Part shown: positions 8,073-53,391 of the stretch, one piece after another
Numbering within the stretch: position 1 is the stretch's first letter
How the letters are laid out: each line of letters opens with the position of its first letter
Assembly: GCA_964652615.1 (NCBI GenBank)
Contig: CAZZAT010000002.1
Location: 7,296-71,295 of the forward strand
DNA: 64,000 nucleotides
From: an uncultured Candidatus Saccharibacteria bacterium
GTDB taxonomy: Bacteria; Patescibacteriota; Minisyncoccia; Phycocordibacterales; Phycocordibacteraceae
Reading direction: 5' to 3'
Program-made: the position numbers and the translations under genes
The notes under the pieces: generated by a model
Told to the model about the DNA's origin: nothing
The model's input: only the letters and a program-made list of their open reading frames with translations
Databases searched by the model: none

Positions 8073-11000
8073 TTAGAGCGGCTTTACGTTCTCAAGGGCA
8101 AGCGATATTTCTCCATTTCTTGAGGAAACTTTTGCCTTTATCAGCATGCAATTGCCGGCCGATAGAAGCTTGGCATGTTCCTTGAAAAGGCGCGGGAAGG
8201 CCACTGCTTCAATAGATCCTGTCTTATCCTCAAGCTTTAGAAACGCCATCTTCTCGCCGCCCTTGGTGAGTATCGCGCGCGCCTCAGTAATAAGGACAGG
8301 GAGTATGAGTGTCATGCCGACCACCGGTTCTTCAAGGAGCGCTGCAATCGTCGTACCTGCTTTCGATGACTTCTCGGCATGCGCATCAAGCGGATGCCCG
8401 GAGACATAGATACCAAGCAGTTCTTTTTCCCATGCAAGCTTGTCGATAAGGGAGGTAACGGAGTCTGCAGAAGGCAGGGTAAGCGTGGGCGGGGCAACGG
8501 CGCCAAACAAAGAGTCTTGCGCTTGGGGTGCTGTTGCGTCCCGATGGAAAGTGAGCAGGGTCTCGATGTGCGCAATGAGATGCGAGCGTTCGCCAAGCGC
8601 ATCAAGCGCACCGCACTTAATCAAGGACTCAAGCGACTTCTTATTCAGATTCTTCGATCCGATACGAACGAGAAACTCCGAAAGGGAAGCAAACGGACCC
8701 CTCTCACGCTCTTGCATGATACTTTCTGCAATACCTTCGCCAAAGTTCTTAATTGAAGAGAGGCCGAAGCGTATCTTTGTTCCCGCATCAACGATGGTAA
8801 AGGTAGAGCGACTTTCGTTGACGTCTGGAGGAAGCACTGGTATCGAAAGGCGCTCGCATTCAGCGGCAAGCACGGCAATCTTCTCAACATCGCCCGCGTC
8901 TGCGGTAAGAAGAGCGGCCATGTATTCAACAGGGTAGTTGGCCTTCATATAGGAAGTCTGATACGCCACTTTGCCGTAGCTTGCTGCGTGTGAGTTGTGC
9001 ACAATGATGTCGTTTGCAATGAAGTTTTGAAGAACAGACACAGAGAGGTCGTAGGTCATTTCTTCTCCATCAGGTTCAATACTGCGGATTTCATCCCAAA
9101 ACACGTCGCTTCTTGCATGCTCGGCAAGCGTCTTTGAAGAGAGGGCTACAGCAGTTTTCTCAAGCACTGCACGCGTATATCCGCGCTTTCGTGTGTCTTC
9201 ATAGAAAAGGCGTTCTGAAAGATTTGTACATCGTGCAAGTTCTGCTATAGGCACTCCTTGCCGTGCAGCTTCTGCACGTATGTGTTCGAGTATCTGCGCC
9301 GGAACAGTATCTGCTGTTCCTCGTCCTCGTGCATTGGTCCGTACGGAACAAAGGCGCACCAAAAGTGCGAGCGAATCGCGTTTTGTTCCGATAAGGTGTG
9401 CGCCAGCAGTTTTTTCAAACCGTGTAAGATTTTCTATACCCGTAACGGTAACGGTATACCCGATACGCAAGCTCCCGCGATACCAAAATTGTTTACGATG
9501 TATCGTTGAAAGTATTGAAAGGCGAAGAAGTACATGCTGTACGTCGTGCGCAAGGTGCTTAGAGCTGGTCGCATAGAACACCTGCTGATTTTTGAGGGAA
9601 ATAGCTCCATCTCCCTGCCACATCTTCCCGAGCATGAGTGCAAGAGAATCGTTGTTCCAGGTAAGCACTGAATCAGGAATTTCTTTCTCTGTAGCGCGCT
9701 TCCCTCGAATACCAAGTCTCTCTGCCCATACAAGCATGCCATTTTGTTCTTTCTGGGTACGTCTGCCTACATATGCGCTTATAGCAGCTTTTGAACGATT
9801 TAAGGTCACTTGTGTGCCCGGGAAGCAGAGCGCTGCACGCGAGAAATCTGCAATCTCATTTTCCTGTGTCGAGTACATGTATAAACCATGCGGATGGCAC
9901 AGATTTCCCTCCGAGAGCAAATATCCAAGCGCTGCCGCTTCGTGTGCTGGGGCTGCACAGGATTCCGTTGGTTCGGGGAGATGGCGTGGAACAGCGATAC
10001 GTGCGCCAGCAGACAGCTCGCCAAGCGGGCGCCACCCTGCAAATGTGAGCAGAGGATGATTGTCTGTTGCACGAATAGTACGGCCGGAACGGGTGGTAAG
10101 GCGGAAGACACGCTTTACGCCATTTTCTCTAACCCAAGAGCCTTGTCCCTCTACAAGCTTCTGGCCTTTCGACAAAGCGAGTACGGGCACTTTACCTTTC
10201 GTTTCAATAAGGGTTTTCAGTGATGTGCGAGAACCTGTTTTTGGATTGTAAATACACGTATCACCCGTTAAGCACTTATTAAACCCATACGCTGCAAAGG
10301 GTTCGATAAGTTTCCAAAGCTCTTCCGCACGCTTTTGTGGGAGCTTTCCATGCTCTACAAAGCCACTAATAAGCTTCTCGCGTTCCGCTTCCATCACTTC
10401 CGGAATCTTCTTACCCATCGCTTTGCGGAGCATGTCTGCCTGAAGCCACGAATAGCCGCCAAGCGTAATCGAGGTCAAAAGCACGTCGTCTTGGTACACC
10501 AGAAGGCCGTAGGAAGCGTCGAGGTAGTCTTTCATGCGCTCATCCATATACGTAATGAGCTTCGGGTTTCGTTTGCGCTCGATGTACTGCGGGATGGTTT
10601 CGATAGGGCCGGGGCGATAGAGCGCCACCATAGCGTTGATGTCATGGATGGTTGTAGGCCGGAGTTCCTTCAGATACCGAGTCATGCCCGAGCCGTTTAA
10701 CTGGAAGGTGCCTTCTGTTTCTCCGCGCGCAAGCATGGCAAAAGTCTTCTCGTCATCAAGCGGCACGTTTTCAATATCAATGACGATGCCGCGCGTTTCT
10801 CGCACGCGCTCCACCGAGTCTGCGAGAATGGCGAGGTTCTTGATGCCAAGGAAGTCGAACTTCAAAAGGCCCGCATCCTCAATGGAATGCATATCGTACT
10901 GGGTGATAAGCTTGCCTGTTTTTTGGTCGGTCTGAAGCGAGGTCCACTCGGTCAGCGGCGTAGGGGAAATAACGACGCCAGCGGCATGTACGCCCGTGTG

Positions 11001-12491
11001 GCGGGCAGAACCTTCAATACGCCGTGCAAGATCAATAATTTCCTTCACATCATCATCTTCTTGGTAGAGCTGCTTCAACTCTTCTTCCATCGTAAGCGCG
11101 CGGTCAATAGTCATAGGGAATCCTTGAGAGCCAAGGGGAATGAGCTTTGCAATGCGATCTCCCGTGCCGTATGCGTGTCCCAAAGCGCGCGCAACGTCGC
11201 GCACTGCCGCTCGCGCAAGCATGGTTCCAAAGGTGCCTATCTGCGCAACGTGGTCTTCACCATACTTTCTTTTTGCGTACGCAATCATCTCGTCGCGCCT
11301 ATCGTCGGCGAAGTCCATGTCGATGTCGGGCGCTGACGGACGCTCGGGGTTCAAGAAGCGCTCAAACGGCAGCTTGTATTTCATCGGGTCTACGTTGGTA
11401 ATGCGGGCAAGATAGGTAACTAGCGATCCTGCAACCGAGCCGCGAATGGTGGTTAGGATGTGGTTTTCGTGAGCGAAGTTGAGAAGGTCGGATACAACAA
11501 GGAAGTAAGGCGCATAACCCTTTTGCTTGATGACCGAGAGCTCGTATTCAATGCGTTTTTCAACTTCCGGTGTCTTCTCCATGCCGCGTGCAGACAATCC
11601 TGCATAGGCTTTTGCCCGAAGTTCTTCGTCGTGGTCGCTAAATCCTTCAGAGACCGCAAGCGCAGGGAACACCCATTTGCCAAGTTCAAATTCAAGAGTG
11701 CAGCGCTCTGCTATTTCTCCTGAACGGTCGACTGCCTCTCCCATATCTTTGAACCATGCGCGCATATTCTTTTCGGATACAAACGAGAAGTCTTCCTTTT
11801 CGTTGTATCCTTCGCTTCCTTGCTGGATGCGCCGCAATACCGCACATGCTTCGCGGTCATCAGGGGAGAGGTAGTACACATCATGCTGCGCAACGAGCGG
11901 CACGCCGCTTTCTTGCGAGAGCTTCTTAATCTGTTCCATCTTTTGCGCGTGCCCTTCTACCGATGGGTGGTGCGTAATTTCAAGGAAGACATTTTCTTTT
12001 CCGAAGATGCTTTGCCAATGAGCAAGAGCGGCCGCAGCTCCTTTTGCGTCGCCTCGTGAAAGCAATTGTGACGTGTCTCCTGCAAAAGAAGGAATGAGCG
12101 CAATGAGTCCTTTCGCATGTTTTTGCAGAAGCTCGCGGTCCATGCGCGGGCGCTCAAAAAAGCCATCGGTATACGAAGCAGTCACAAGCGCAAGCAAGTT
12201 CTTATACCCTTCCTGATTTTCAACAAGAAGCACGAGGCGCGAGCGCTTTTCATCTCGGTCGTGCACTAATCGTGATGCGGGAGCGATATAGGCATCAACA
12301 CCAAGCACTGCTTTAATGCCCGCCTTCTTCGCTTCTTTATAAAACTCAATTGCGCCATGCAGGTTGCCTTCATCGGTTAGGGCAAGCGCTTCCATGCCTT
12401 CCTTTTTTGCAGCCTCGACAAGCTCAGGCACTTTCGGAAGGGCTTTTAAGAAAGAGTAGTGGCTGTGGGTGTGTAGGTGAACGAATGCCAT
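8073..12491 (-). CDS. dnaE: DNA polymerase III alpha subunit (DnaE) interrupted by an in-frame intein
   Basis: An N-terminal PHP domain (MAFVHLHTHSHYSF), a polymerase core and a C-terminal OB fold. The conserved GFNK|SHAASY motif is split by a 427-aa insertion. Confidence 0.9.
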   Translation of the reverse strand: MAFVHLHTHSHYSFLKALPKVPELVEAAKKEGMEALALTDEGNLHGAIEFYKEAKKAGIKAVLGVDAYIAPASRLVHDRDEKRSRLVLLVENQEGYKNLLALVTASYTDGFFERPRMDRELLQKHAKGLIALIPSFAGDTSQLLSRGDAKGAAAALAHWQSIFGKENVFLEITHHPSVEGHAQKMEQIKKLSQESGVPLVAQHDVYYLSPDDREACAVLRRIQQGSEGYNEKEDFSFVSEKNMRAWFKDMGEAVDRSGEIAERCTLEFELGKWVFPALAVSEGFSDHDEELRAKAYAGLSARGMEKTPEVEKRIEYELSVIKQKGYAPYFLVVSDLLNFAHENHILTTIRGSVAGSLVTYLARITNVDPMKYKLPFERFLNPERPSAPDIDMDFADDRRDEMIAYAKRKYGEDHVAQIGTFGTMLARAAVRDVARALGHAYGTGDRIAKLIPLGSQGFPMTIDRALTMEEELKQLYQEDDDVKEIIDLARRIEGSARHTGVHAAGVVISPTPLTEWTSLQTDQKTGKLITQYDMHSIEDAGLLKFDFLGIKNLAILADSVERVRETRGIVIDIENVPLDDEKTFAMLARGETEGTFQLNGSGMTRYLKELRPTTIHDINAMVALYRPGPIETIPQYIERKRNPKLITYMDERMKDYLDASYGLLVYQDDVLLTSITLGGYSWLQADMLRKAMGKKIPEVMEAEREKLISGFVEHGKLPQKRAEELWKLIEPFAAYGFNKCLTGDTCIYNPKTGSRTSLKTLIETKGKVPVLALSKGQKLVEGQGSWVRENGVKRVFRLTTRSGRTIRATDNHPLLTFAGWRPLGELSAGARIAVPRHLPEPTESCAAPAHEAAALGYLLSEGNLCHPHGLYMYSTQENEIADFSRAALCFPGTQVTLNRSKAAISAYVGRRTQKEQNGMLVWAERLGIRGKRATEKEIPDSVLTWNNDSLALMLGKMWQGDGAISLKNQQVFYATSSKHLAHDVQHVLLRLSILSTIHRKQFWYRGSLRIGYTVTVTGIENLTRFEKTAGAHLIGTKRDSLALLVRLCSVRTNARGRGTADTVPAQILEHIRAEAARQGVPIAELARCTNLSERLFYEDTRKRGYTRAVLEKTAVALSSKTLAEHARSDVFWDEIRSIEPDGEEMTYDLSVSVLQNFIANDIIVHNSHAASYGKVAYQTSYMKANYPVEYMAALLTADAGDVEKIAVLAAECERLSIPVLPPDVNESRSTFTIVDAGTKIRFGLSSIKNFGEGIAESIMQERERGPFASLSEFLVRIGSKNLNKKSLESLIKCGALDALGERSHLIAHIETLLTFHRDATAPQAQDSLFGAVAPPTLTLPSADSVTSLIDKLAWEKELLGIYVSGHPLDAHAEKSSKAGTTIAALLEEPVVGMTLILPVLITEARAILTKGGEKMAFLKLEDKTGSIEAVAFPRLFKEHAKLLSAGNCMLIKAKVSSRNGEISLALENVKPL
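8994..10274 (-). mobile_element. Intein (427 aa) with LAGLIDADG-like homing endonuclease domain in dnaE
   Basis: Spans aa 740-1166 of DnaE. It starts with Cys1 (CLTGDTCIY, block A), has a TxxH block B (TDNH), LAGLIDADG-like motifs (LGYLLSEGNL and LALMLGKMWQGDGAI), and ends in VHN followed by a Ser +1 extein residue. Codons verified: 10272-10274 revcomp tgc (Cys) and 8994-8996 revcomp aac (Asn). Confidence 0.8.
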
Positions 12492-13869: not shown

Positions 13870-13889
13870 CTACCGTGTACTTTAGATAC

Positions 13890-14786
13890 ATGGCAAACAG
13901 GCACCTTGCACGCTCGGTTGTTCTTCAGACCCTCTTTGAGTGGGATAGTGTTTCTGTACCGGAAGCCGAGGTGCCTGCCATTTTAGAGCGAAACGCCGCA
14001 GAATTTGGAGGCTCGGATACGGATAAGCCGTTCATGCAGGAGCTTCTCTCCGGAGTGCTTGCAAAGCATACCGATCTTGATGCCATCATCGTTAAGGCAG
14101 CGCCTGACTGGCCCCTTGAACGCATCGCTCCCATAGACCGCAATATTCTGCGCATCGGCCTCTACGAACTTCTCTTTTCTGATAGAGCGCAAGTGCCTCC
14201 TAAGGTTGCTATTAACGAAGCGATTGAGCTTGCAAAAGTGTTTGGCGGAGACTCCTCCGGAAGATTTATTAACGGCGTTTTGGGTGCGGTATATAAAGAG
14301 CTTGGAGAACCAGGCAAAGACGAGCAAGGAAAGAAAGAGAAGCAATCGCGCAAAGAACTCCCGCTTGAAAATCTTGCAGGCGCTATTGTCTACGCATACC
14401 ACGACGGCCAATACTATCTCGCGCTCGTTCATGACGTCTTTGGACGCTGGACGCTTTCAAAGGGCCATATTGGCGAAGGAGTAGCGCCTAAAGACGGCGT
14501 TGCAAAAGTGGTTAAAGATGAGATAGGGCTAGAAGGGAAGGTACTAGAGCAAATTGGCGAGAATGAGTACGTTGCTTCGCATCCCGAGAAAGGAAAAGTG
14601 CGAAAGCATGTGTACTTCTTCCTCGTTGAAGCTCCGTATGAGACGCTCGAACTTAAAAAGAGCGGCGGCCTCGATGATGCGAAGTGGTTTCGGCTCCCCG
14701 ACATCCTCGCCCTTAACTTCTATGACGACATGCTGCCGATAGTTACTGCAGCGGTGCAGAAGCTTTTGGATAAGAGTAGTGCTTAA
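13890..14786 (+). CDS. nusB: Transcription antitermination factor NusB fused to a C-terminal Nudix-like domain
   Basis: The N-terminal approximately 150 aa match NusB (LARSVVLQTLFEWD, INEAIELAKVFGGDSSGRFINGVLG). The C-terminal approximately 140 aa have a Nudix-like fold signature (GHIGEGVAPKDGVAKVVKDEIGLEG, with a degenerate Nudix box). Confidence 0.7.
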   Translation: MANRHLARSVVLQTLFEWDSVSVPEAEVPAILERNAAEFGGSDTDKPFMQELLSGVLAKHTDLDAIIVKAAPDWPLERIAPIDRNILRIGLYELLFSDRAQVPPKVAINEAIELAKVFGGDSSGRFINGVLGAVYKELGEPGKDEQGKKEKQSRKELPLENLAGAIVYAYHDGQYYLALVHDVFGRWTLSKGHIGEGVAPKDGVAKVVKDEIGLEGKVLEQIGENEYVASHPEKGKVRKHVYFFLVEAPYETLELKKSGGLDDAKWFRLPDILALNFYDDMLPIVTAAVQKLLDKSSA

Positions 14787-37757: not shown

Positions 37758-38837
37758 ATGCAAACAGCACCCGTACGAAACCTACACAAAACCATGCGCG
37801 TCACAGATGAAATCCTTGAACGGTACCGCACGCAAAGCGCGGCGTTCATGTCGCCCGACCAAGCCGGCGCCCGCCGGTTCTACCGCTCGCAGCACCGCAC
37901 CGAAATAGCGGTGTTGAAGTGCATGGACGGCAGGCTCAACTTGGCGCTCATGACGAATACGCCGCCCGGCATTCTCTCGCCGTTTCGCACGATGGGAGGA
38001 AAGTTCAACATGGGGTGGCCGTGGTTTGGCGACCTCATCGATGAATGGGTGAAGCATGCGTGGGAGAAGCAGCGCAGCGCGGTCATTCTGGTGACCTACC
38101 ACTTTTCGCGCTCCCATAATTCGCATCTCGGATGCAAAGGATGGGGGTACGACCAAGCGGCTGCACAGGATGCGGCGCATGCGCTCGTGAACGACATTGG
38201 GCGCATCTATGGCGTCGGGCACGATGGCGTTCGCGCTATCGTAGTCGGTATTGAAACGGATGAAGACGCACTCGTTTTTCACGGAAATGGAACGCTCGAC
38301 TTGGCACAAGAGGCGGACACCGCTGAATTTGAGCTTCTCGAGAAGTTTCGCGTTCTTTTCCCTGGCATGGGACTTCAAGTTCTTTCCGATGTGTTTGAAC
38401 TCGTGAAAGGCAATATTGCGCATATCGCCGAGATTCGCGCCAAAAAGCGCGAACCTATCGACATGGACCATCGCGAAAACATCATCGGGGTGGGCCGCGG
38501 TTTCGATTCGCTCCATATGCCCAACCGAGCGCTCATCATCGGCCCCTTCGATCATGGGTGGCCAAACGAAGTGGCAGTCGCAGGAAAGATTGTTAAAAGC
38601 AATCTTGAAGCGGGCCGCATCAACGTCGAGGACGGCTTCCTTTTGCTGTGCTCGTCTGCGTTTCGCAAGGACCGCGGCACGGGCCTTGAACGGCACCGCT
38701 CTGAATTCCGAGCGAAGGAAATTGCGAAGTACGCTCAAAAGGCGCTTACCGAGGCAGTTCCCGATCTTACATTCGATGTCGTTATCGGCACTGTCGATAT
38801 GGATACTCGCGAACTCTACGTTCTCGAGCGGTCATAG
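37758..38837 (+). CDS. Hypothetical protein (359 aa) with a CxDxR ... HxxC motif pair
   Basis: VLKCMDGR at aa 52-59 and SHLGCKG at aa 122-128 resemble the zinc-site spacing of beta-carbonic anhydrase, but overall similarity is not established. Confidence 0.5.
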   Translation: MQTAPVRNLHKTMRVTDEILERYRTQSAAFMSPDQAGARRFYRSQHRTEIAVLKCMDGRLNLALMTNTPPGILSPFRTMGGKFNMGWPWFGDLIDEWVKHAWEKQRSAVILVTYHFSRSHNSHLGCKGWGYDQAAAQDAAHALVNDIGRIYGVGHDGVRAIVVGIETDEDALVFHGNGTLDLAQEADTAEFELLEKFRVLFPGMGLQVLSDVFELVKGNIAHIAEIRAKKREPIDMDHRENIIGVGRGFDSLHMPNRALIIGPFDHGWPNEVAVAGKIVKSNLEAGRINVEDGFLLLCSSAFRKDRGTGLERHRSEFRAKEIAKYAQKALTEAVPDLTFDVVIGTVDMDTRELYVLERS

Positions 38838-45388: not shown

Positions 45389-47779
45389 TTACATCCCCCG
45401 AATCATATCCTTTTCAATATCTGCAAACGTACCACCTACTTTCTTTCCCGGATTCAAGATATTCAAAGGATCAAAGATACGCTTCGTCTCTTCAAAGAGA
45501 GCCATCATATCCGGACCAAACATATGGGGCAGATAGGGCGTTCGTATGATGCCGTCATTGTGCTCTCCAGTGGTTGAGCCGCCATACTCCATCACCAACT
45601 CATATACGCGCGGGGAAAGTTCGAGGATAATTCTATGCGACTCTTCCTTTGCAAGATCCATAAGCGGGATGATGTGGAAGTTGCCGTTGCCGATATGGCC
45701 TGCAATGGTGTAGATGAGATCGTACTCGGCAAGGAGTTTGTTTAGGCGCGGCAGAAACTCGGGATAACTGTCTGGCGGTACAACAAAGTCATCGATAAAA
45801 GGGGCAGCGTATAAGCCCTTTAGGTTCTTGCGAAGCAGCGAGAAGCTCTCCCGTCGCACTATCCAGTACTTTTCTGCACCTGCCTCATTCTTTTTGACGC
45901 TCGTAGGAAGTCCCATATCGGCAAGCGCTGCTTTTGCTTCTTCCGCCTTGCGTACCGCCTCTTCAGGCGTATCTTCGGAGAACTCTGCCATGAGAACGAG
46001 CTTTGGTACGCCGCCCTGAAGCGCCATCATAACTTCTGGAATAAAAGAAATACCAAGGCGTGCGGCGCGTACAAAGCCCATCTGCGAGAGCATCTGCGGC
46101 AAGTACTTTAGGGCAAGCGAGAAAGTATGGTCGTCATAGGATTCAAATGATTCAGGATTTGATTTTAAGACCCTGCGTACAATTTCCGGCAAGGGCGCAA
46201 GGTCTTTCAAGAAGATGACGAGCATGGCGCGCGATGGTTGTGGCGTCACCAGTTTCAAGGTCATAGAGGTGGTGAGTGCAAGCGTTCCTTGCGCACCACA
46301 CAGGAGCTTCGCAAGATTGAAGGTTCCGTTCTCAACGTCAAAGACATTCCAGAGCGCATAGCCCGCAGAGTTCTTTGAGACGGTAGGTCGATGTGCCTCT
46401 ATGACCTCGCGATTCTTTACGATAAGGTCGCTCATCCTGCGATAGATATCACCCTCAAGGGTAGGGAGCTTCTTCTTTTCAAGAAGCTCGTCTGGCCCAA
46501 GCTCTCCAAAGGTTGCAAGCGAACCGTCTGAAAGCACCACCTCTGTTGAGACGACATAGTTCTCGGTCTTGCCGTATTCAAGGGTCCGCTCTCCGCCTGA
46601 ATTGTTGTTGAATATGCCTCCCATCGCAGCAATAGAGCGCGAAGCAGGGTAGGAGGGGAGGATGAGGTTTTTAGCGAGCGTTGCTTTCTCAAAGTCTCGG
46701 TAGTAGACCCCTGGTTCGGTTGTTGCCTGTCCTTTTTCAATCGTCCCAATATGGTTCATATACTTCGTAAACACGGCAACAACCGAACGGGTCAAAGGAC
46801 CGCCGCTCATATCAGTACCTGCGCTTCGTGCTGTTATCGACACTTCTTCTCCAGCACTCTTTGCGTCATGTATCTTTTTCACAAGCGCTCCCACTTCCTC
46901 CTTGTTCTTTGGAAACACCACAAGAGAAGGCGTGCGCTCAAACACGCTCGTATCGCGCGCGTATTTCTTGCGCACCTCAAGAGCATCTTCTGCTTCAATG
47001 CCAGCTTCTTGAAGCAAGGAACGAAGCGGGCTGCCGATAAGCTCCTCGATAAGTGCAGCGGTCTCTTCGGGGCCTTTAACCGCATGCGTTGTGATGCCGG
47101 TTGTCTTTACGATTTCGTCATTGCCGCCTGGAAAGAGAGCATCTCCCGTGTAGAGCATTTCAGAAACAGGGATGCCAGTCATTTTCGAAAGCTCCTCTAC
47201 GCCATACGCTTTGGTCATTCCTTCCTTTGTTATATCTATCGAACTCATTGCATTTACGCGTACCGAGAACCCTGGAAGCGCCTTTCGAAGTATCTTTGCA
47301 AGCGGTTCGCGCTTCTTCTTGTCAGGATCCCATGTTTGTTTTTCTTCAGGAGGAGCTTCTTGTCCCAACCCCGAGAACGTAATCTGTGCACCGCGATCTT
47401 CAATGCGCTCACCCCATACCTTTTCAGGGGGCGTATCCATGCCCGTTTTTTTGAGTCCGTCATCAAGAGCGGTAAGCACCTTTTCGCGCTCCTGTTTGGT
47501 AAAGCGGTGCGTATAGACGGTTTTCCATCCAGAGCCCGTGTACTGCAGGCACTCCGCAGCACTTACGGGGAAGAGATAGAGTTTTTCAAAGCGCGCAGTT
47601 TTCGGTATGGCAGAGATGAGCTGTGTTTCAATTTGCTCCCAAGAACCTCCGGTCATCACTGCGACCGGCATCTTTTCAAGAAGGCGGGCAAGCAAAGCGC
47701 CCATGTCTTTTTCAACAGGGGACTTGCTCTTTGCAAGCGTTCCATCAAGATCAAATATTGCTATGCGCGGCTTTTCCAT
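45389..47779 (-). CDS. Fusion protein: eukaryotic-type phosphomannomutase (HAD) N-terminal domain joined to an FAD-linked oxidase (GlcD/D-LDH-like)
   Basis: At the N-terminus, IAIFDLDGTLA and YTGDALFPGGNDEIV match PMM-family HAD motifs. At the C-terminus there is a PCMH-type FAD-binding domain (VVFPKNKEEVGALVKKIHDA...ARSAGTDMSGGPL) plus an FAD-oxidase C-terminal domain. The start was moved to M41. Confidence 0.7.
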   Translation of the reverse strand: MEKPRIAIFDLDGTLAKSKSPVEKDMGALLARLLEKMPVAVMTGGSWEQIETQLISAIPKTARFEKLYLFPVSAAECLQYTGSGWKTVYTHRFTKQEREKVLTALDDGLKKTGMDTPPEKVWGERIEDRGAQITFSGLGQEAPPEEKQTWDPDKKKREPLAKILRKALPGFSVRVNAMSSIDITKEGMTKAYGVEELSKMTGIPVSEMLYTGDALFPGGNDEIVKTTGITTHAVKGPEETAALIEELIGSPLRSLLQEAGIEAEDALEVRKKYARDTSVFERTPSLVVFPKNKEEVGALVKKIHDAKSAGEEVSITARSAGTDMSGGPLTRSVVAVFTKYMNHIGTIEKGQATTEPGVYYRDFEKATLAKNLILPSYPASRSIAAMGGIFNNNSGGERTLEYGKTENYVVSTEVVLSDGSLATFGELGPDELLEKKKLPTLEGDIYRRMSDLIVKNREVIEAHRPTVSKNSAGYALWNVFDVENGTFNLAKLLCGAQGTLALTTSMTLKLVTPQPSRAMLVIFLKDLAPLPEIVRRVLKSNPESFESYDDHTFSLALKYLPQMLSQMGFVRAARLGISFIPEVMMALQGGVPKLVLMAEFSEDTPEEAVRKAEEAKAALADMGLPTSVKKNEAGAEKYWIVRRESFSLLRKNLKGLYAAPFIDDFVVPPDSYPEFLPRLNKLLAEYDLIYTIAGHIGNGNFHIIPLMDLAKEESHRIILELSPRVYELVMEYGGSTTGEHNDGIIRTPYLPHMFGPDMMALFEETKRIFDPLNILNPGKKVGGTFADIEKDMIRGM

Positions 47780-47781
47780 AG

Positions 47782-49701
47782 CTAGTTCCAGGTAAGTGCT
47801 TTCATGATGCGCGAAAGAGAGGCAGTTGCAACGCCAACCACTTTGTCTGCACCTCCGTAGTACATAAAGAGGGTATCGCCACGAAGTACGAGGCCGCACG
47901 GAAAGACAACGTTTCCAATCTCACCCACTTTCTCGTAGTCAGTTTCAGGCTCAAATATTGGGTCTGCGCTTCGGGCAAGTACGGTGGTGCCGTGCTCATC
48001 AAGGAGTGCCGCACCCACGCGATAGCGGGAGCGATGTGAGACGCCATGATAGAGCATGAGCCAGCCGCCCTTCACTTTAACGGGCGGCGCTGCAATACCC
48101 ACCTTCGCTGCGTCCCAGAGCCCCTCTCGTGGTCCCATAATTTCAATACACTTTGAGACGCGCTTTCCAGAATGGAGATCAGGAAGCACATCTGCGCAAA
48201 TGCGCCTTGATACGCGGTGATACAGAAGATAGCCATCTTCCCGTTTCTCTGGCAGGAGCGCCAAGTCTTTATCATCAACATCATCCGGCGTCACAAGAAG
48301 CGGCTCCGTCCACTTGTCGAACTCTTTATTGCGGAACTCTTCGAGAGAGAGCGACGTAATGGCGCCAATAGGGGCATGCACGCCATCATAGGCGGTATAC
48401 GTCATATAGATGCGATCATCGATGACAACGGTGCGCGGATCCTCACACCCTGAATTGCCGTCCGGTTTTCCTTGCTTCATCTCAAAAGGAGCGCGCGGTC
48501 CATAGATAGGTACAGAAAGCCGCTCACTAATCTGGAGCCCATCTTCGCTTCGTGCATAGCCAACAGTGGAAGTATTCGGGTTGTCCATCGCTCTATAGAA
48601 AATATGTACGGAACCATCGAGCTCAAACGCTGCAGGATTAAAGACCAGCTTTTCTTCAAAGGTATTTTCAGGCTGCGGAGAGAGTATAGGGTTTCCGGGG
48701 AAGCGGACAAACAAAGGATCTTCTTTTGCAGTGAGTGCTTCAAGCAAGTCCGGCAAATGAAGTGCGGCCCGTGCGCATGTGGTATCGGCTGCGCCATAGT
48801 AGAGATCGAGCGTGTCTCCGCGCAGAAGCGCTCCGGAAGGGAAGACGATGTTTGGGATAAGGCCGAAGCGCTCATACACTTCTTCAGCTACCATGAAGGG
48901 GTAGGTTCGACTCTTTAAGATGCGCGGGTCCTCTAGATCAAGAAGAAGCGCCTCAACGCCAAACATACGCTCCTTTTCGTTGTAGTAGCGCTGGGTATAG
49001 GAATAGAGGAGAAGCCAGCCTTCATCTGTCTTTACGGGCGGCGCCCCTATCTCTACATGGTCATCATCGCTGCGGCGCAAGTTCGGCAGCGCATGCTCGC
49101 TCAAGTGCTCGTGCCACTCTCGCCAGAAGTCATGGTTCCAGAAATCTTCCATGTTTTTGACGCGCGCAATGCCAATGGTTGGACGCGGATGCTCTGGCGT
49201 GAAATCGGTATGCACTGTTACGAGCGCAACATACTCGCCATTAATCTTTTCTGGAAACAAAGCAAACGCTTTTGCATTAAAGGGAGTAAGCAGGTGGCGC
49301 TCATCAAAGTCTTCGCCGTTATGGGAAATAGCGAGCGCTGCCTTAATGTTGTCTGGTCCGTACGGGTGTCCGCCAAGAGCTGTGTAGGAAAGATACGTGA
49401 TGCCATCGATGATGGTTGCGCGCGGATCTTCGCACCCAAACGCTTCCCAGTCGTGCATAGGCGCTATGACCTGCCGATGGTGGGAGAAGTGCGTACCGTC
49501 TCTGGACTCTGCCATGCCTATCGTCGATTCAGGAGAAAAGGGCGCGATGATAGCCTGCGGGTTTGCAAGCGCGCGATAGTACATGCGCAGCTTTCCGTGC
49601 TCTTTCACCACTGACGGATTGAATGCAGCAAGCGCTTCCCATGGATGCTCGCGCCGTGGCGCAAGGAGCGGGTTTTCAGGATCTCGTTTGACGATAAACA
49701 T
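47782..49701 (-). CDS. Glycoside hydrolase family 130 protein with two tandem GH130 domains
   Basis: Two copies of the approximately 300-aa GH130 (DUF377) fold, each with AFNP...YRA, CEDPR and YYGGAD motifs. Confidence 0.8.
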   Translation of the reverse strand: MFIVKRDPENPLLAPRREHPWEALAAFNPSVVKEHGKLRMYYRALANPQAIIAPFSPESTIGMAESRDGTHFSHHRQVIAPMHDWEAFGCEDPRATIIDGITYLSYTALGGHPYGPDNIKAALAISHNGEDFDERHLLTPFNAKAFALFPEKINGEYVALVTVHTDFTPEHPRPTIGIARVKNMEDFWNHDFWREWHEHLSEHALPNLRRSDDDHVEIGAPPVKTDEGWLLLYSYTQRYYNEKERMFGVEALLLDLEDPRILKSRTYPFMVAEEVYERFGLIPNIVFPSGALLRGDTLDLYYGAADTTCARAALHLPDLLEALTAKEDPLFVRFPGNPILSPQPENTFEEKLVFNPAAFELDGSVHIFYRAMDNPNTSTVGYARSEDGLQISERLSVPIYGPRAPFEMKQGKPDGNSGCEDPRTVVIDDRIYMTYTAYDGVHAPIGAITSLSLEEFRNKEFDKWTEPLLVTPDDVDDKDLALLPEKREDGYLLYHRVSRRICADVLPDLHSGKRVSKCIEIMGPREGLWDAAKVGIAAPPVKVKGGWLMLYHGVSHRSRYRVGAALLDEHGTTVLARSADPIFEPETDYEKVGEIGNVVFPCGLVLRGDTLFMYYGGADKVVGVATASLSRIMKALTWN

Positions 49702-49704
49702 AGA

Positions 49705-50853
49705 TTAGGCAGTTGCGTAGGCAGGAGCGAGCATGCCAGAAACTTTTTGTGGCGCGACAAGCTTCCCGAGCAGTTTTGAAAGAGACGTTTGTGCCGTGCA
49801 GACAACCTGATCACCGCCTCCGTAATAGACGCGGAGCATGTCGTTTTCAACCGTTGCCCCGCATGCGTACACGATGCCTGGCTTCCCATGGTTTTCATAC
49901 CACGCATCCGGTTCAAGAACAGGCACCGGAGAACGCGCAAGCACCTTTGAAGGATTCAACAGGTCAAGCAGCAGCGCACCAAGCTTATAGCGATGCGGCT
50001 CGCGCGCATCATTTGCGTGATACAAAACAAGCCACCCATGCTTTGTTTTAAGGGGAGGAGGACCTGCGCCGCGTAGCTGTGAATCCCAGACGGTAGCATC
50101 AACGACAGGATTGTACGGACTCTCGATGCCCACATCATCTTTCAATTCTTCAAGATGTTCAACCAAGACGCTTTCTCGCGAGCCTGAATGCAAACTGTGC
50201 AAAAGCGAGAAGCGTCCCTGCATCTTTTGCGGGAACAGTACCCAGTTCTTGTGCACTTGTCCCTCGGGAGAAAGGTATGCTGGCTTCGTCCACTTCCAGC
50301 GCTTGTTCAAAAGATCATCAAGTGAAAGAGAAGTAACGGCAACACGAAGCGATCCCCATCCAGAGAATGCATTAAAGGTGAGGTAGACACGATTCTCTAT
50401 CACGACTGCGCGCGGATCTTCAACGCCCGCAAATGCGTAGCTTCCGCCAGACTCTGCAAGCCCCTCGTGTCCGGAAAATGCTTCGCGCCCCCCCGCATCT
50501 GTCTGGAGCGCAAATACAGGGTAGGGAGGACGTTCGTCTATATGTACGCCATCTTTACTTTTTGCATACCCGATACGTGAGACGCCGTCTGCGCCCACGG
50601 CTCTATAAAACATATGGGTGTGTCCGCCTGCGCGCACCACCGCAGGATTCATGACCCCGCCGCGCTCCCACGACTGTTCTCTGGCTTCGAGTATCGGATT
50701 CATCTCTTCGCGCGTAAGGCCAAGAGCACGAAGCAGGTCTTTAATGCGTTCAGGAAGCGAGAGTGCGCGTACAATCTTCCATACGCCGTACAAGAATATG
50801 CCGGTTGTCGTAAGAGCCCCAGCGAGTGCGAGATAGAAGAGAAAGAGTCCCAT
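49705..50853 (-). CDS. Glycoside hydrolase family 130 protein with an N-terminal TM anchor
   Basis: A single GH130 domain (MNPAVV...MFYRA, VEDPR, YYGGGD). Confidence 0.8.
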   Translation of the reverse strand: MGLFLFYLALAGALTTTGIFLYGVWKIVRALSLPERIKDLLRALGLTREEMNPILEAREQSWERGGVMNPAVVRAGGHTHMFYRAVGADGVSRIGYAKSKDGVHIDERPPYPVFALQTDAGGREAFSGHEGLAESGGSYAFAGVEDPRAVVIENRVYLTFNAFSGWGSLRVAVTSLSLDDLLNKRWKWTKPAYLSPEGQVHKNWVLFPQKMQGRFSLLHSLHSGSRESVLVEHLEELKDDVGIESPYNPVVDATVWDSQLRGAGPPPLKTKHGWLVLYHANDAREPHRYKLGALLLDLLNPSKVLARSPVPVLEPDAWYENHGKPGIVYACGATVENDMLRVYYGGGDQVVCTAQTSLSKLLGKLVAPQKVSGMLAPAYATA

Positions 50854-50856
50854 ACT

Positions 50857-51216
50857 TTAGGCAGCGCGCCCGAAGTCATCTTCGAGCCGCTCGATATCTT
50901 CTTCATTAAACTCACCAAACGCTATCTCAAGAACCGTAATGCCTTCAGGTCCTCCGGTGAGCCTATGCGCCATCCCTATCTTCACCAGTGTCTCATCACC
51001 CACCTGCAATGTACGTGCTTCACCCTCAAGCTCAAGCGTGCCGCTTCCGCGTATAACGCGCCAGAACTCTTCGCGTCCTCTGTGTCGCTGCAGCGAGAAG
51101 CGTTTATCCGGCGCAACATGCAGAAACTTCACGGTGCACTGCTCATTCTCTACAAAGCGCTCAAACGAACCCCACGGGCGCTCCTCTTTGTAATAGGTAT
51201 CTAAAGGGTGGGCCAT
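50857..51216 (-). CDS. Mannose-6-phosphate isomerase type II cupin domain protein
   Basis: ERPWGSFE, KVKFLHVAPDKRFSLQRHRGREEFWRV, GMAHRL and LEIAFGEFNEEDIERLEDDFGR match the PMI C-terminal cupin. The start is at M89, after AGGAGG. Confidence 0.75.
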   Translation of the reverse strand: MAHPLDTYYKEERPWGSFERFVENEQCTVKFLHVAPDKRFSLQRHRGREEFWRVIRGSGTLELEGEARTLQVGDETLVKIGMAHRLTGGPEGITVLEIAFGEFNEEDIERLEDDFGRAA

Positions 51217-51325
51217 GCTCCTCCTATAATACCGCATCCTCTCCCTATACTTCCCGTGGATTGCTCCATGAAAGTGAAAGGTATATAAAGGTCTCACACC
51301 TGACGCTAGCACTAGGAGGTTGGGT

Positions 51326-51799
51326 ATGGAAGAACGCACGAAGAAAGCAGCGACAGCTGTTGCTCGGGCACTTCTTGAAGATTCCGAGTTGAGTTTTTCG
51401 GCGGCTTGCGTAGCTGCAGAAATTGCATCTGGCACCCTGAAGCGATATGTAAAGCACGACACACCGGAAACCTTCCTCAAGAAGTGGGGAGGATCACTTG
51501 CTACTCCGGAACGGGTGAAGCTTGTTCTTCAAGGAACGTTGCGCAGACTGCACGAGATTGCAAGGCGAGCCGCTAAAGCAAAGGAGCGCGAAGAAGCGCG
51601 AGCGGCGGCAAAAGAAATACTAGTACCGCTGCCTAAGCCGCAGCGAGCGCTCGGAAGCCATGAGTGTCAGTGGGTGGTCAATCCGAAAGGTCCGGACTAC
51701 TACTGCACAGCAGCGGTTATGGGTTTGTACTGCGTGAAGCATGATCTGATAGCGCAACAGCAGGCCGAGCGTCGATTTAAGATTCTACGCACGGCGTAA
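51326..51799 (+). CDS. Hypothetical protein (157 aa)
   Basis: AGGAGG 6 nt before the ATG; a C-terminal Cys cluster (HECQWVV...YYCTAAVMGLYCVKHD). Confidence 0.5.
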   Translation: MEERTKKAATAVARALLEDSELSFSAACVAAEIASGTLKRYVKHDTPETFLKKWGGSLATPERVKLVLQGTLRRLHEIARRAAKAKEREEARAAAKEILVPLPKPQRALGSHECQWVVNPKGPDYYCTAAVMGLYCVKHDLIAQQQAERRFKILRTA

Positions 51800-51806
51800 C
51801 GAAATA

Positions 51807-51839
51807 AGGAGCACGCTTAGGCGTGCTCCTCCTTTTTTG
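51807..51839 (+). terminator. Intrinsic terminator
   Basis: aggagcacgc-ttag-gcgtgctcct followed by ccttttttg. Confidence 0.75.
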
Positions 51840-51856: not shown

Positions 51857-52621
51857 ATGCCTCCAGCAATTGAAGTGAAAGGGGTTAAGAAGACCTATAA
51901 AAAGAGCGGGCGCTCTGCAACTGCTACCGAAGCTCTGAAAGGAGTGTCTCTTGCTGTGCCTTCAGGTGAGTTCTTTGCGCTTCTTGGCCCAAACGGCGCA
52001 GGCAAGACGACGCTTATTGGAATACTCACCGGCCTTGTTGAAAAGAGCGAAGGGGAAGTGCGCGTGAACGGCATTTCTATAGACGAAGACCCAGACACAG
52101 CAAAGACCTATATAGGTGTCGTCCCGCAGGAGATGAACTTCAACATCTTCGAGAAAGTCATTGATATTATTCTCGACCAAGCAGGGTACTACGGCATAGA
52201 GCGCAGCGTTGCGCTCCCGCGCGCAGAGCAGCTCCTGAAAGATCTTGGCCTTTGGGAGAAGCGAAGCGAGAAGTCGCAGAACCTTTCAGGAGGGATGAAG
52301 CGCCGCCTTATGATTGCGCGTGCTCTTATTCATGAACCAAAGATTCTTTTGCTCGATGAACCTACCGCAGGCGTTGATGTGGAGCTACGGCGCGGCATGT
52401 GGGAGTACTTGCGGCGCATCAACAGCGAAGGAACGACCATCGTCCTTACCACCCACTACCTTGAAGAAGCTGAACAGCTTTCGCGCCATGTTGCCATTAT
52501 CAATAAGGGGGAAGTGGTGGTTGATGAAGCAACGAAAGCGCTGATGGCGCGCCATGAAGGCAAGCGCCTCGAAGATATCTTCCTCGATATTATCGGTGAA
52601 GAGAAAACGACCATAGCATGA
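51857..52621 (+). CDS. ABC transporter ATP-binding protein (ABC-2 type)
   Basis: Walker A GPNGAGKTT, the LSGGMKRR signature and Walker B LLLDEPTAGVD. Confidence 0.9.
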   Translation: MPPAIEVKGVKKTYKKSGRSATATEALKGVSLAVPSGEFFALLGPNGAGKTTLIGILTGLVEKSEGEVRVNGISIDEDPDTAKTYIGVVPQEMNFNIFEKVIDIILDQAGYYGIERSVALPRAEQLLKDLGLWEKRSEKSQNLSGGMKRRLMIARALIHEPKILLLDEPTAGVDVELRRGMWEYLRRINSEGTTIVLTTHYLEEAEQLSRHVAIINKGEVVVDEATKALMARHEGKRLEDIFLDIIGEEKTTIA

Positions 52622-53391
52622 TGAAGAACCCCGCACTCGTTGGTTTGTATACGATGGTCCGCAAGGACACCATTCGCATTTTCCGTATCTGGTCGCAGAC
52701 GCTTCTGCCGCCCGTCGTGACAACCGCACTCTACTTTGCAGTGTTTGGCGGCTTTATCGGCAGCCAAGTCGATCCTATCGACGGCTTCTCCTATATGCAG
52801 TTCATCATGCCGGGACTCGTGATGCTCACCATCATCACCTCTGCATACATGAATACGGTTTCCACCTTCTACTTCTCAAAGTTCATCAAGACCATCGAAG
52901 AGCTTCTCGTCTCTCCGATGCCGTCATGGGCTATTGTCACAGGGTTTGTCTTAGGCGGCGTGGTGCGTGCTTTCTTAACAGGCTTTCTCGTCGTTATTAC
53001 CTCGCTCTTCTTCACACACCTCACTATTCATAGCCTTGTCTTTGTATTTGCTGCGGCATTTCTAACTGCACTCCTGTTCTCGCTTGCAGGACTCGTGAAT
53101 GGATTCTTTGCAAAGAGCTTTGATGCTATTAGCATCATTCCGACCTTCGTACTGACGCCCCTTACGTACCTTGGCGGCGTCTTCTACTCTATCGACCTTC
53201 TCCCAGAACCATTTCGCACCCTCTCTCTGTTTAACCCTATCCTCTATATGGTGGACGCGTTCCGCTACGGAATACTCGGCATTTCAGATGTGGGCGTGGG
53301 TCTCTCGTTTGCTGTGCTTGGCGGCCTTACCGTTCTCTTTTTCCTCATTACGCTCTTTATGTTTATTAAAGGAACAGGCTTCAAGAATTAA
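52618..53391 (+). CDS. ABC-2 family transporter permease
   Basis: Six TM helices; its start overlaps the ATPase stop (ATGA). Confidence 0.8.
   Translation: MMKNPALVGLYTMVRKDTIRIFRIWSQTLLPPVVTTALYFAVFGGFIGSQVDPIDGFSYMQFIMPGLVMLTIITSAYMNTVSTFYFSKFIKTIEELLVSPMPSWAIVTGFVLGGVVRAFLTGFLVVITSLFFTHLTIHSLVFVFAAAFLTALLFSLAGLVNGFFAKSFDAISIIPTFVLTPLTYLGGVFYSIDLLPEPFRTLSLFNPILYMVDAFRYGILGISDVGVGLSFAVLGGLTVLFFLITLFMFIKGTGFKN

Follow-up and report, generated by a model that had tools for sequence, protein, structure and literature searches.

A patescibacterial gene cluster places three GH130 domains, one with the beta-1,2-mannoside phosphorylase signature, beside candidate mannose-phosphate enzymes

We analysed a stretch of 64,000 nucleotides (the window) from an uncultured Candidatus Saccharibacteria bacterium (assembly GCA_964652615.1, contig CAZZAT010000002.1, positions 7,296 to 71,295), and in it four adjacent genes which encode three GH130 domains, a cupin resembling phosphomannose isomerase (PMI), a HAD-type sugar-phosphate mutase domain and an FAD-linked oxidase. 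An earlier note, made from the letters alone, had read these genes as a route from beta-mannosides to fructose-6-phosphate (Fru-6-P) that spends no ATP. The window is a housekeeping region of a Patescibacteria genome, similar to Parcubacteria/Paceibacteria, of about 52% GC with rpoB/C, dnaG, rpoD, dnaE, and the genes of ribonucleotide reductase and aminoacyl-tRNA synthetases. The nearest relatives of the focal proteins come from metagenome-assembled genomes labelled Kaiserbacteria, Paceibacterota, Minisyncoccia and Parcubacteria. As listed in Table 1, open reading frame (ORF) calls together with Pfam and NCBIfam scans give four head-to-tail genes at 45389-51216, all on the minus strand. Stop and start codons of neighbouring genes are only 2-3 nt apart (TAA-agt-ATG, TAA-tct-ATG and TAG-ct-ATG), and there are no separate ribosome-binding sites at these junctions, which argues for translational coupling of the four genes. 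A strong ribosome-binding site, AGGAGGAG, lies ahead of the cupin ATG at 51216. A consensus scan of the region upstream of the operon (51217-51325) found no sigma-70-like promoter.

Table 1. Genes, domains and flanking elements of the GH130 locus (positions in the window)
Feature	Position	Strand	Basis or remark
Stand-alone type-II PMI-like cupin, 119 aa	50857-51216	-	PF01050; first gene of the operon
Single GH130 (TM-type), 382 aa	49705-50853	-	PF04041; variant phosphate site
Membrane anchor of the single GH130, aa 3-25	50779-50847	-	Hydropathy and charge
Tandem GH130, whole gene	47782-49701	-	PF04041, two stretches
Tandem GH130 domain A, aa 1-326, putative non-phosphorylase variant (A-type)	48724-49701	-	Residue pattern
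Tandem GH130 domain B, aa 327-639, canonical beta-1,2-mannoside phosphorylase signature	47785-48723	-	Residue pattern
Fourth gene, 796 aa, HAD plus FAD-linked oxidase	45389-47779	-	Pfam
HAD-IIB domain, predicted alpha-phosphohexomutase (PgmH/PMM family)	47015-47779	-	4BND match, motifs
FAD-linked oxidase domain (D-lactate/glycolate/D-2-hydroxyglutarate dehydrogenase family)	45389-46984	-	PF01565 and PF02913
Intergenic region between the cupin operon and a divergent 157-aa ORF	51217-51325	.	Read from the sequence
Divergent ABC-2 exporter pair	51857-53391 (ATPase 51857-52621; permease 52618-53391)	+	PF00005, PF01061

How firmly do the three domains belong to GH130, and to which part of it? The tandem protein matches PF04041 with an E-value of 2e-95 in two stretches (hmmsearch envelopes 1-332 and 326-639), and the single GH130 protein, which was compared by sequence, matches it with 6e-36. 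These matches, and those of the accessory domains given below, score far beyond chance. An AlphaFold2 model of the tandem protein (pLDDT 93, pTM 0.90) is superposed by Foldseek on 9FJ8, 9GPH and 7FIP at TM-scores of 0.87-0.90, with the five-bladed beta-propeller fold. The best PDB matches of all three domains are Teth514_1788/1789 of Thermoanaerobacter at 31-37% identity (37% for domain B), followed by Lin0857 and Uhgb_MS. For all three, the GH130_3 beta-1,2-mannosidases and the beta-1,4 enzymes score well below the Thermoanaerobacter pair.

The residues that set mechanism and linkage were then mapped on 144 homologues of the tandem protein and 21 homologues of the single GH130, with criteria drawn from PMC7660257, PMC4599007 and PMC12814180 and columns numbered as in Uhgb_MS. 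According to these criteria, a GH130 phosphorylase has a proton donor and a phosphate-binding Arg/His pair (R168/H231 in UhgbMP, R202/H261 in Uhgb_MS) (PMC7660257), and it has no signal peptide, which implies a cytoplasmic location (Li et al. 2020, PMC7660257). In a GH130 hydrolase the proton donor is joined by a Glu base, which takes the column of the phosphate Arg. The proton donor is D104 in UhgbMP and D137 in Uhgb_MS. A marker pair in the +1 subsite, at the positions of Y103/R150 in UhgbMP, is E/K in beta-1,2 enzymes and Y/R in beta-1,4 enzymes. Among the homologues, the catalytic Asp is invariant in all three domains (D92 in A, D421 in B, D146 in the single protein), and so are the -1 subsite Asn, the C-terminal Asp and the +1 Arg. 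The E/K pair is invariant as well (E91/K144 in A, E420/K478 in B, E145/K202 in the single protein). All three domains thus likely point to beta-1,2 rather than beta-1,4 linkage, and mannan, mannobiose and the Man-GlcNAc (mannosyl-N-acetylglucosamine) of N-glycans are unlikely substrates. A reading of the locus with beta-1,4 or N-glycan substrates was rejected on the same pair.

The three domains differ at the phosphate site. In domain B the Arg of column R202 is kept as R496 and the His of column H261 as H552, both in 144/144 homologues, and column R242 is Lys (K533), as in Teth514_1789; D421, R496, H552, E420/K478 and D619 are all invariant. In domain A, R202 is replaced by Thr, H261 by Ser (S234, 140/144) and R242 by His (H215). 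Two invariant carboxylates, D166 and E217, stand near the phosphate site of this domain, and its sugar-binding and catalytic residues are invariant across the 144 homologues. Note that the R202 column of domain A depends on the aligner: phmmer puts T165 there, while MAFFT and hmmalign put T162, and in their alignments residues 164-174 form an L2-like insertion bearing D166. Either way the residue is Thr and never Arg. The single GH130, for which we use the name TM-type after its transmembrane (TM) helix, has Ser at R202 (S/N/G/T in 21/21 relatives), keeps H261 and has the Arg of column R242 displaced by one residue. Its 'NKD' is changed to 'KNW', and it retains N, R47, E136, D137, K184, H261 and the C-terminal Asp (Uhgb_MS numbering).

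The phosphate-binding Arg/His pair is therefore intact in domain B only, and by the published criteria the residue pattern classes domain B alone as a phosphorylase. Judged in the same way, domain A and the TM-type fit neither GH130 class, since they have neither the R/H pair of the phosphorylases nor the Glu base of the hydrolases. Among the 15 meta-nodes in the table of Li et al., none has these patterns. Are they then just decaying copies? Their substitutions have been conserved, and the constraint on domain A comes close to that on domain B (mean identity among homologues 59% vs 64%), which indicates functional variants instead. With two or more of the phosphate ligands lost in each, probably neither of them carries out phosphorolysis. 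A further recurrent GH130 signature, NREDK[NS]R.K.GQD, was seen in the proteins P0121-P0270. It keeps the phosphate Arg and has Gln (or Tyr/Asn) for the phosphate His, and it also lies outside the meta-node patterns tabulated by Li et al.

Two known groups which work on beta-mannosides deserve comparison. The first is GH130_3, with BT3780 and BACOVA_03624. As in domain A, the catalytic Asp is retained in these enzymes, and with it both the Glu of the E/K pair and the beta-1,2 Lys; their basic phosphate ligands are replaced, and there are carboxylates in the site (PMC4599007). The columns, however, are different: BT3780 has Glu at E227/E268, where domain A has Thr/Ser, and the carboxylates D166 and E217 of domain A are found at other positions. 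Domain A scores 49 bits against 5A7V and 148 bits against 9FJ8, and unlike GH130_3 it lacks a signal peptide and has a phosphorylase-type domain as its fusion partner. These differences in columns, scores and fusion suggest that domain A lost its phosphate site independently of GH130_3. A GH130_3-type mannosidase was thus rejected as an identity for domain A, on the Thr/Ser in place of Glu and on the lower scores. The second group is GT108, with MTP1-7 of Leishmania. Together with Uhgb_MS, these proteins share with the present domains the five-bladed propeller, beta-1,2-mannoside chemistry and a set of paralogues among which synthesis and phosphorolysis are divided. In GT108 and GH130 enzymes, the counterpart of R202 is a switch between glycosyltransferase (GT) and glycoside phosphorylase (GP) activity (PMC12814180, PMC10913872). 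The switch residue of the Leishmania proteins is His, in contrast to Thr/Ser in the variants of the window, and there is no match to them at the sequence level. Membership in GT108 was rejected, as no phmmer PDB match to the MTPs was obtained at E<=1e-3 and Foldseek gave only E 1e-9 at 13% identity. By analogy, Leishmania mannogen may still give an idea of how an endogenous beta-1,2-mannan cycle could work.

Where in the cell would these domains work? Residues 1-25 of the single GH130 are uncharged and hydrophobic (Kyte-Doolittle 1.94 over 19 aa) and are followed at aa 26-42 by five positive charges (K26, R29, R36, K38, R42) and two negative ones. By the positive-inside rule the catalytic domain is predicted to be cytoplasmic, with the C-terminus inside. 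In the tandem protein the N-terminus is not hydrophobic. The single GH130 of the relatives L004, L006, L013 and L032 (loci are cited by our own numbers) likewise has a TM helix, while in other relatives the N-terminus has a poly-Lys tail or an extra domain, and never a secretion signal. In L009, L010, L012, L019 and L026 the upstream 'single' GH130 has about 610-625 aa (e.g. L012 8147-9973). The extra N-terminal domain of about 280 aa in these proteins is not recognised by Pfam and has a weak BLAST link to GH130, which suggests four propeller-like domains in those five loci.

The two accessory enzymes give the link to hexose phosphates. The cupin matches PF01050 at 70 bits (cut-off 23.6) and aligns with positions 359-466 of TIGR01479 (GMP_PMI). 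Its motif RPWG..K..SLQxHxxRxExW..H..E..G..ExD..D.YGR is the complete type-II PMI signature, and each signature position is either invariant or conserved to 80% or more in the cupins of 15 relatives and the full-length ManC of L033. A sequence search found no solved homologue of the cupin. From the signature we infer that it interconverts mannose-6-phosphate (Man-6-P) and Fru-6-P. ManC/AlgA (GMP-PMI, TIGR01479) carry the same full signature in their C-terminal cupin; unlike them, the cupin of the window is a stand-alone protein without a guanylyltransferase domain.

Residues 1-250 of the fourth gene match PF03332, the phosphomannomutase (PMM) family, at 34 bits (cut-off 22.4), and also HAD-IIB, with TIGR01484 above its cut-off too. 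This domain aligns over its full length with the alpha-phosphoglucomutase (alpha-PGM) of L. lactis, 4BND, at 135 bits (E 2e-38), against no more than 58 bits (E 1e-14 or weaker) for true PMMs. The DxDGT nucleophile, the motif III Lys, GDxxxGGND and the C2B cap are all present in the 4BND alignment, so that full-length HAD-IIB homology and all catalytic motifs are shared with L. lactis PgmH and PMM1/2. The cap arginines R134 and R141 of PMM2 are replaced by Gln and Lys, the same pair as in L. lactis alpha-PGM. By homology, then, the domain is a hexose-1-phosphate/hexose-6-phosphate mutase of the PgmH type rather than a eukaryotic PMM. What sets it apart from PgmH is its fusion to residues ~266-796 (about 530 aa), an FAD-linked oxidase with PF01565 and PF02913 whose PDB matches are LctD, glycolate oxidase and D-lactate dehydrogenase. 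The fusion is found only in the window and in L048 (70% identity). The HAD domain is a stand-alone 249-aa gene in six relatives, and in L004, L006 and L049 the oxidase is a separate gene farther downstream (3-4 kb in L004 and L006). This indicates a lineage-specific fusion, which probably has no connection with mannose and probably arose through loss of intervening genes.

Is the arrangement conserved? Gene order was counted over 28 non-redundant loci encoding the tandem GH130. In 26 of them the single GH130 is the immediate upstream neighbour on the same strand, and the other two have too little flanking sequence. A PMI-like cupin is found within 3.5 kb on the same strand in 16/28 (13 upstream, 3 downstream), and the HAD mutase directly downstream of the tandem gene in 8/28. 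The trio is kept at 45-85% identity over many Parcubacteria lineages, and closer relatives also share the downstream neighbours RRM, DUF1360, MTS, bPH and HisRS. An exhaustive search with domain A, followed by signature typing, recovered A-GP tandems, stand-alone A-type proteins, one GP-A protein and one triple fusion. The triple fusion, P0122 (971 aa, L051 8001-10916), carries TM-type, A-type and GP-type in one chain, in the order of the genes in the window. Synteny, the 2-3 nt spacing and this natural fusion argue that the genes function together. In the literature we found no paper which connects mannoside phosphorylases to the Candidate Phyla Radiation (CPR), save that GH130 is named in passing for a Microgenomates genome.

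The transporters near these genes are of the exporter type. In the window the ATP-binding cassette (ABC) permease matches NF011648 (YadH-type) at 332 bits (cut-off 225). Its ATPase is DrrA/NodI-like and separately encoded, and no solute-binding protein accompanies the pair. An identity as a Wzm/Wzt or TagGH polysaccharide exporter was considered and not retained, NCBIfam leading to YadH/DrrB/NodJ and the PDB giving no homologue. The pair is divergent from the module in the window and in L048. In L012 a homologous pair precedes the cupin and GH130 genes on their upstream side, co-directional and with gaps below 35 nt, and in L014, L018 and L025 MsbA/ChvA-like exporters stand directly downstream of the tandem gene. 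From this synteny we infer both the cargo of the ABC-2 pair and its functional link to the GH130 genes. None of the 28 loci has an importer, a solute-binding protein or a secreted glycanase. In L051, apparently not a CPR genome, the gene order is UDP-glucose dehydrogenase, epimerase/dehydratase, BcsA-like GT2, mannose-1-phosphate (Man-1-P) guanylyltransferase and the triple GH130, the last beginning 23 nt ahead of where the guanylyltransferase gene ends. In L033 (Hyphomicrobiales) the order is GT4, GH130, ManC, ..., ABC-2. Genes for BacA (undecaprenyl-diphosphate phosphatase), PAP2, DedA/VTT-domain proteins and GT2/GT4 were seen a few kb upstream of the GH130 pair in relatives of 59-61% identity (L004 4895-8725, L049 1058-3938, L050 1-2341). 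They may reflect a link to the lipid-carrier cycle of the envelope, or coincidence in compact genomes. Between the cupin operon and the ABC-2 genes of the window lies a 157-aa ORF (51326-51799, plus strand) without a family match, which is missing from the syntenic relative L048. It is ended by a strong bidirectional hairpin terminator at 51807-51830 (stem of 10-11 bp and a T-run), only about 26 nt before the start of the ABC ATPase.

Much of the earlier gene reading thus holds. The three GH130 domains, one single and two in tandem, lie where they had been placed, the N-terminal anchor is there, the cupin is of the PMI type and aligns to no other cupin family, and there is an ABC-2 pair and no uptake transporter next to the genes. 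Other parts need correction. The 'eukaryotic-type phosphomannomutase' belongs to the PMM family of HAD proteins but stands closest to alpha-PGM, and the four genes are adjacent as described but the oxidase fused to the mutase had been overlooked. As to the conserved residues which the earlier note proposed to check, the catalytic Asp is present in all three domains, and the phosphate pair in one, so that what the note itself had named as a refutation applies to the other two.

Which characterised system comes nearest? It is the Teth514_1788/1789 cluster of Thermoanaerobacter. Common to both systems are the E/K pair and the catalytic Asp, the phosphate ligands of domain B are the same, and in both GH130 paralogues sit side by side and are linked to mannose-phosphate enzymes. 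They differ in that two of the three domains of the window have no Arg/His pair, that two domains are fused and that one GH130 is membrane-anchored. The Teth514 cluster has a guanylyltransferase, a GT4, a GH5 and an importer dependent on a solute-binding protein, where the window has a PMI-like cupin and a HAD mutase. The guanylyltransferase, specific for Man-1-P, and the GT4 are described in PMC4264767. Compared with this cluster, the new features are two variants of the active site, the fusion of GH130 domains in tandem and in triple form, a membrane anchor and the wiring with PMI, mutase and exporter.

There is then the question of what the module does. The four genes would form one translationally coupled operon for a cytoplasmic, membrane-tethered module which interconverts beta-1,2-mannosides, Man-1-P and hexose-6-phosphates. 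Domain B would reversibly convert beta-1,2-mannoside and inorganic phosphate to alpha-Man-1-P, the PgmH/PMM-type HAD mutase would interconvert hexose-1-phosphate and hexose-6-phosphate, and the type-II PMI cupin Man-6-P and Fru-6-P. The A-type, with its gained invariant carboxylates, would most likely work by hydrolysis or transglycosylation, and the most likely part of the TM-type is to place the system at the membrane or to act on another donor or acceptor. We tentatively prefer, at somewhat less than even odds, a module which builds and mobilises an endogenous beta-1,2-mannoside, either a reserve or an exported glycan, to one which scavenges host glycans. This preference comes from the reversible steps, the lack of an adjacent importer, the stable and conserved position of the genes, the exporters and the GDP-mannose and GT neighbours outside CPR. 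The characterised beta-1,2 GH130 phosphorylases are readily reversible and make beta-1,2-oligomannan from Man-1-P (PMC4264767, PMC12814180). The exporters and the gene context suggest an endogenous glycan but are not decisive.

Several points weigh against this reading. We know of no beta-1,2-mannan from any CPR bacterium, and the beta-1,2-mannoside, substrate or product, is predicted here from genes. Some ManC cupin domains reportedly lack PMI activity. The closest characterised relative of the mutase is an alpha-PGM which is reportedly glucose-specific. Many of the 28 loci lack the HAD mutase, and many lack the cupin. The adjacent exporters are of generic types (YadH/DrrAB/NodIJ and MsbA-like) and occur in 6/28 loci only, and importers may lie elsewhere in the genome. 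Finally, the Thermoanaerobacter homologues have been given a catabolic or salvage role, with imported oligomannan as their substrate (PMC4264767).

This last point leads to the alternative that the module is catabolic, i.e. that beta-mannosides of the host or environment are taken through Man-1-P and Man-6-P to Fru-6-P and into glycolysis with ATP spared, as the earlier note had it. On paper the route exists, for domain B, the mutase and the cupin make a formally complete set. Catabolism is the published role of Bacteroides GH130 phosphorylases, and a related salvage role has been proposed in Thermoanaerobacter (PMC4264767). A hydrolase-like A-type could help finish oligomers, and in L049 a pyruvate kinase gene lies near the module. 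However, two of the three domains have lost the phosphate site and by the residue criteria fail as phosphorylases, the E/K signature makes beta-1,4-mannan and Man-GlcNAc, and with them the host glycans and mannan once proposed, unlikely substrates, and in all 28 loci importers, solute-binding proteins and secreted glycanases are absent, with exporter-type transporters the only ones adjacent. Moreover, the trio is kept at its 45-85% identity across many Parcubacteria lineages in a stable locus, although beta-1,2-mannosides seldom occur in nature. Given the reversible reactions, the lack of an adjacent importer, the membrane tether and the links to exporters, GDP-mannose and GTs, the catabolic direction and the exogenous substrate are not established, and we regard this alternative as rather unlikely.

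Could the module instead serve to supply Man-1-P? Here the GH130 enzymes would recycle beta-1,2-mannosides to Man-1-P, a guanylyltransferase encoded elsewhere would turn it into GDP-mannose for glycans, and the cupin and mutase would balance the pool. GH130 genes of this clade do adjoin Man-1-P guanylyltransferase genes in L051, L033 and Thermoanaerobacter, the CPR cupin shares homology with ManC's C-terminal domain, and GT2, GT4, BacA and PAP2 genes are a few kb away in L004, L049 and L050. But no guanylyltransferase domain is encoded in the window or in the CPR flanks examined, and a source of beta-1,2-mannoside would still be required; we consider this proposal quite improbable. The weakest proposal, that the GH130 trio is one unit beside a housekeeping alpha-phosphoglucomutase and a cupin without PMI activity, brought together by genome compaction, can draw on the HAD domain being nearest to alpha-PGM and adjacent in 8/28 loci only, on the 12/28 loci without the cupin, and on the HAD fusion to an unrelated FAD oxidase, elsewhere a mere downstream neighbour, which suggests that fusion or adjacency can arise here by deletion, but it is very doubtful in view of the 2-3 nt spacing, the ManC-type domains which recur beside GH130 genes outside CPR, and the same-strand cupins in 16 loci spanning 37-57% identity, cupins whose position now upstream and now downstream of the GH130 genes suggests selection for linkage.

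Returning to the preferred reading of an endogenous beta-1,2-mannoside, it can be carried further. In its boldest form, Parcubacteria would make and turn over a beta-1,2-mannan of their own from Fru-6-P, driven by a phosphorylase and without nucleotide sugars, with labour divided among the three GH130 types and the product exported by the ABC-2 pair. The order would be PMI cupin, PgmH-type mutase and GH130, and the product would be a counterpart of Leishmania mannogen or an exported envelope glycan. The TM-type might then be a membrane-tethered primer or hand-over protein, domain B a reversible polymerase/phosphorylase, and the A-type might trim the chain by hydrolysis or transglycosylation. 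Taken as a whole, this scenario is an improbable one.

Some features elsewhere in the window are worth recording. DnaE (1472 aa, 8073-12491, minus strand) contains an intein with a LAGLIDADG homing-endonuclease domain at residues ~756-1166 (Intein_splicing and LAGLIDADG_3). A 303-aa ORF (13875-14786, plus strand) is an unusual fusion of NusB (aa 12-141) and a NUDIX hydrolase (aa 183-286). A 359-aa protein (37758-38837, plus strand) has a weak match of 30 bits to CsoSCA_cat, the carboxysome shell carbonic anhydrase, which is unexpected for CPR. Scans of the window for tRNAs and Rfam families gave no matches.

What does the locus mean for these organisms? CPR bacteria (Patescibacteria) have a minimal metabolism, and their carbohydrate biology is largely uncharted. 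Here they have a conserved GH130 system of three domains with a single site of the phosphate-binding type, tied to putative mannose-phosphate enzymes and recurrent beside exporters. This suggests an unrecognised endogenous beta-1,2-mannoside, a reserve or a surface glycan, in these episymbionts, or else a specialised scavenging system. For the family, the two conserved GH130 variants are targets for enzymology and for the engineering of beta-mannoside synthesis, and they bear on how phosphorylases, hydrolases and transferases may interconvert on the GH130/GT108 scaffold.

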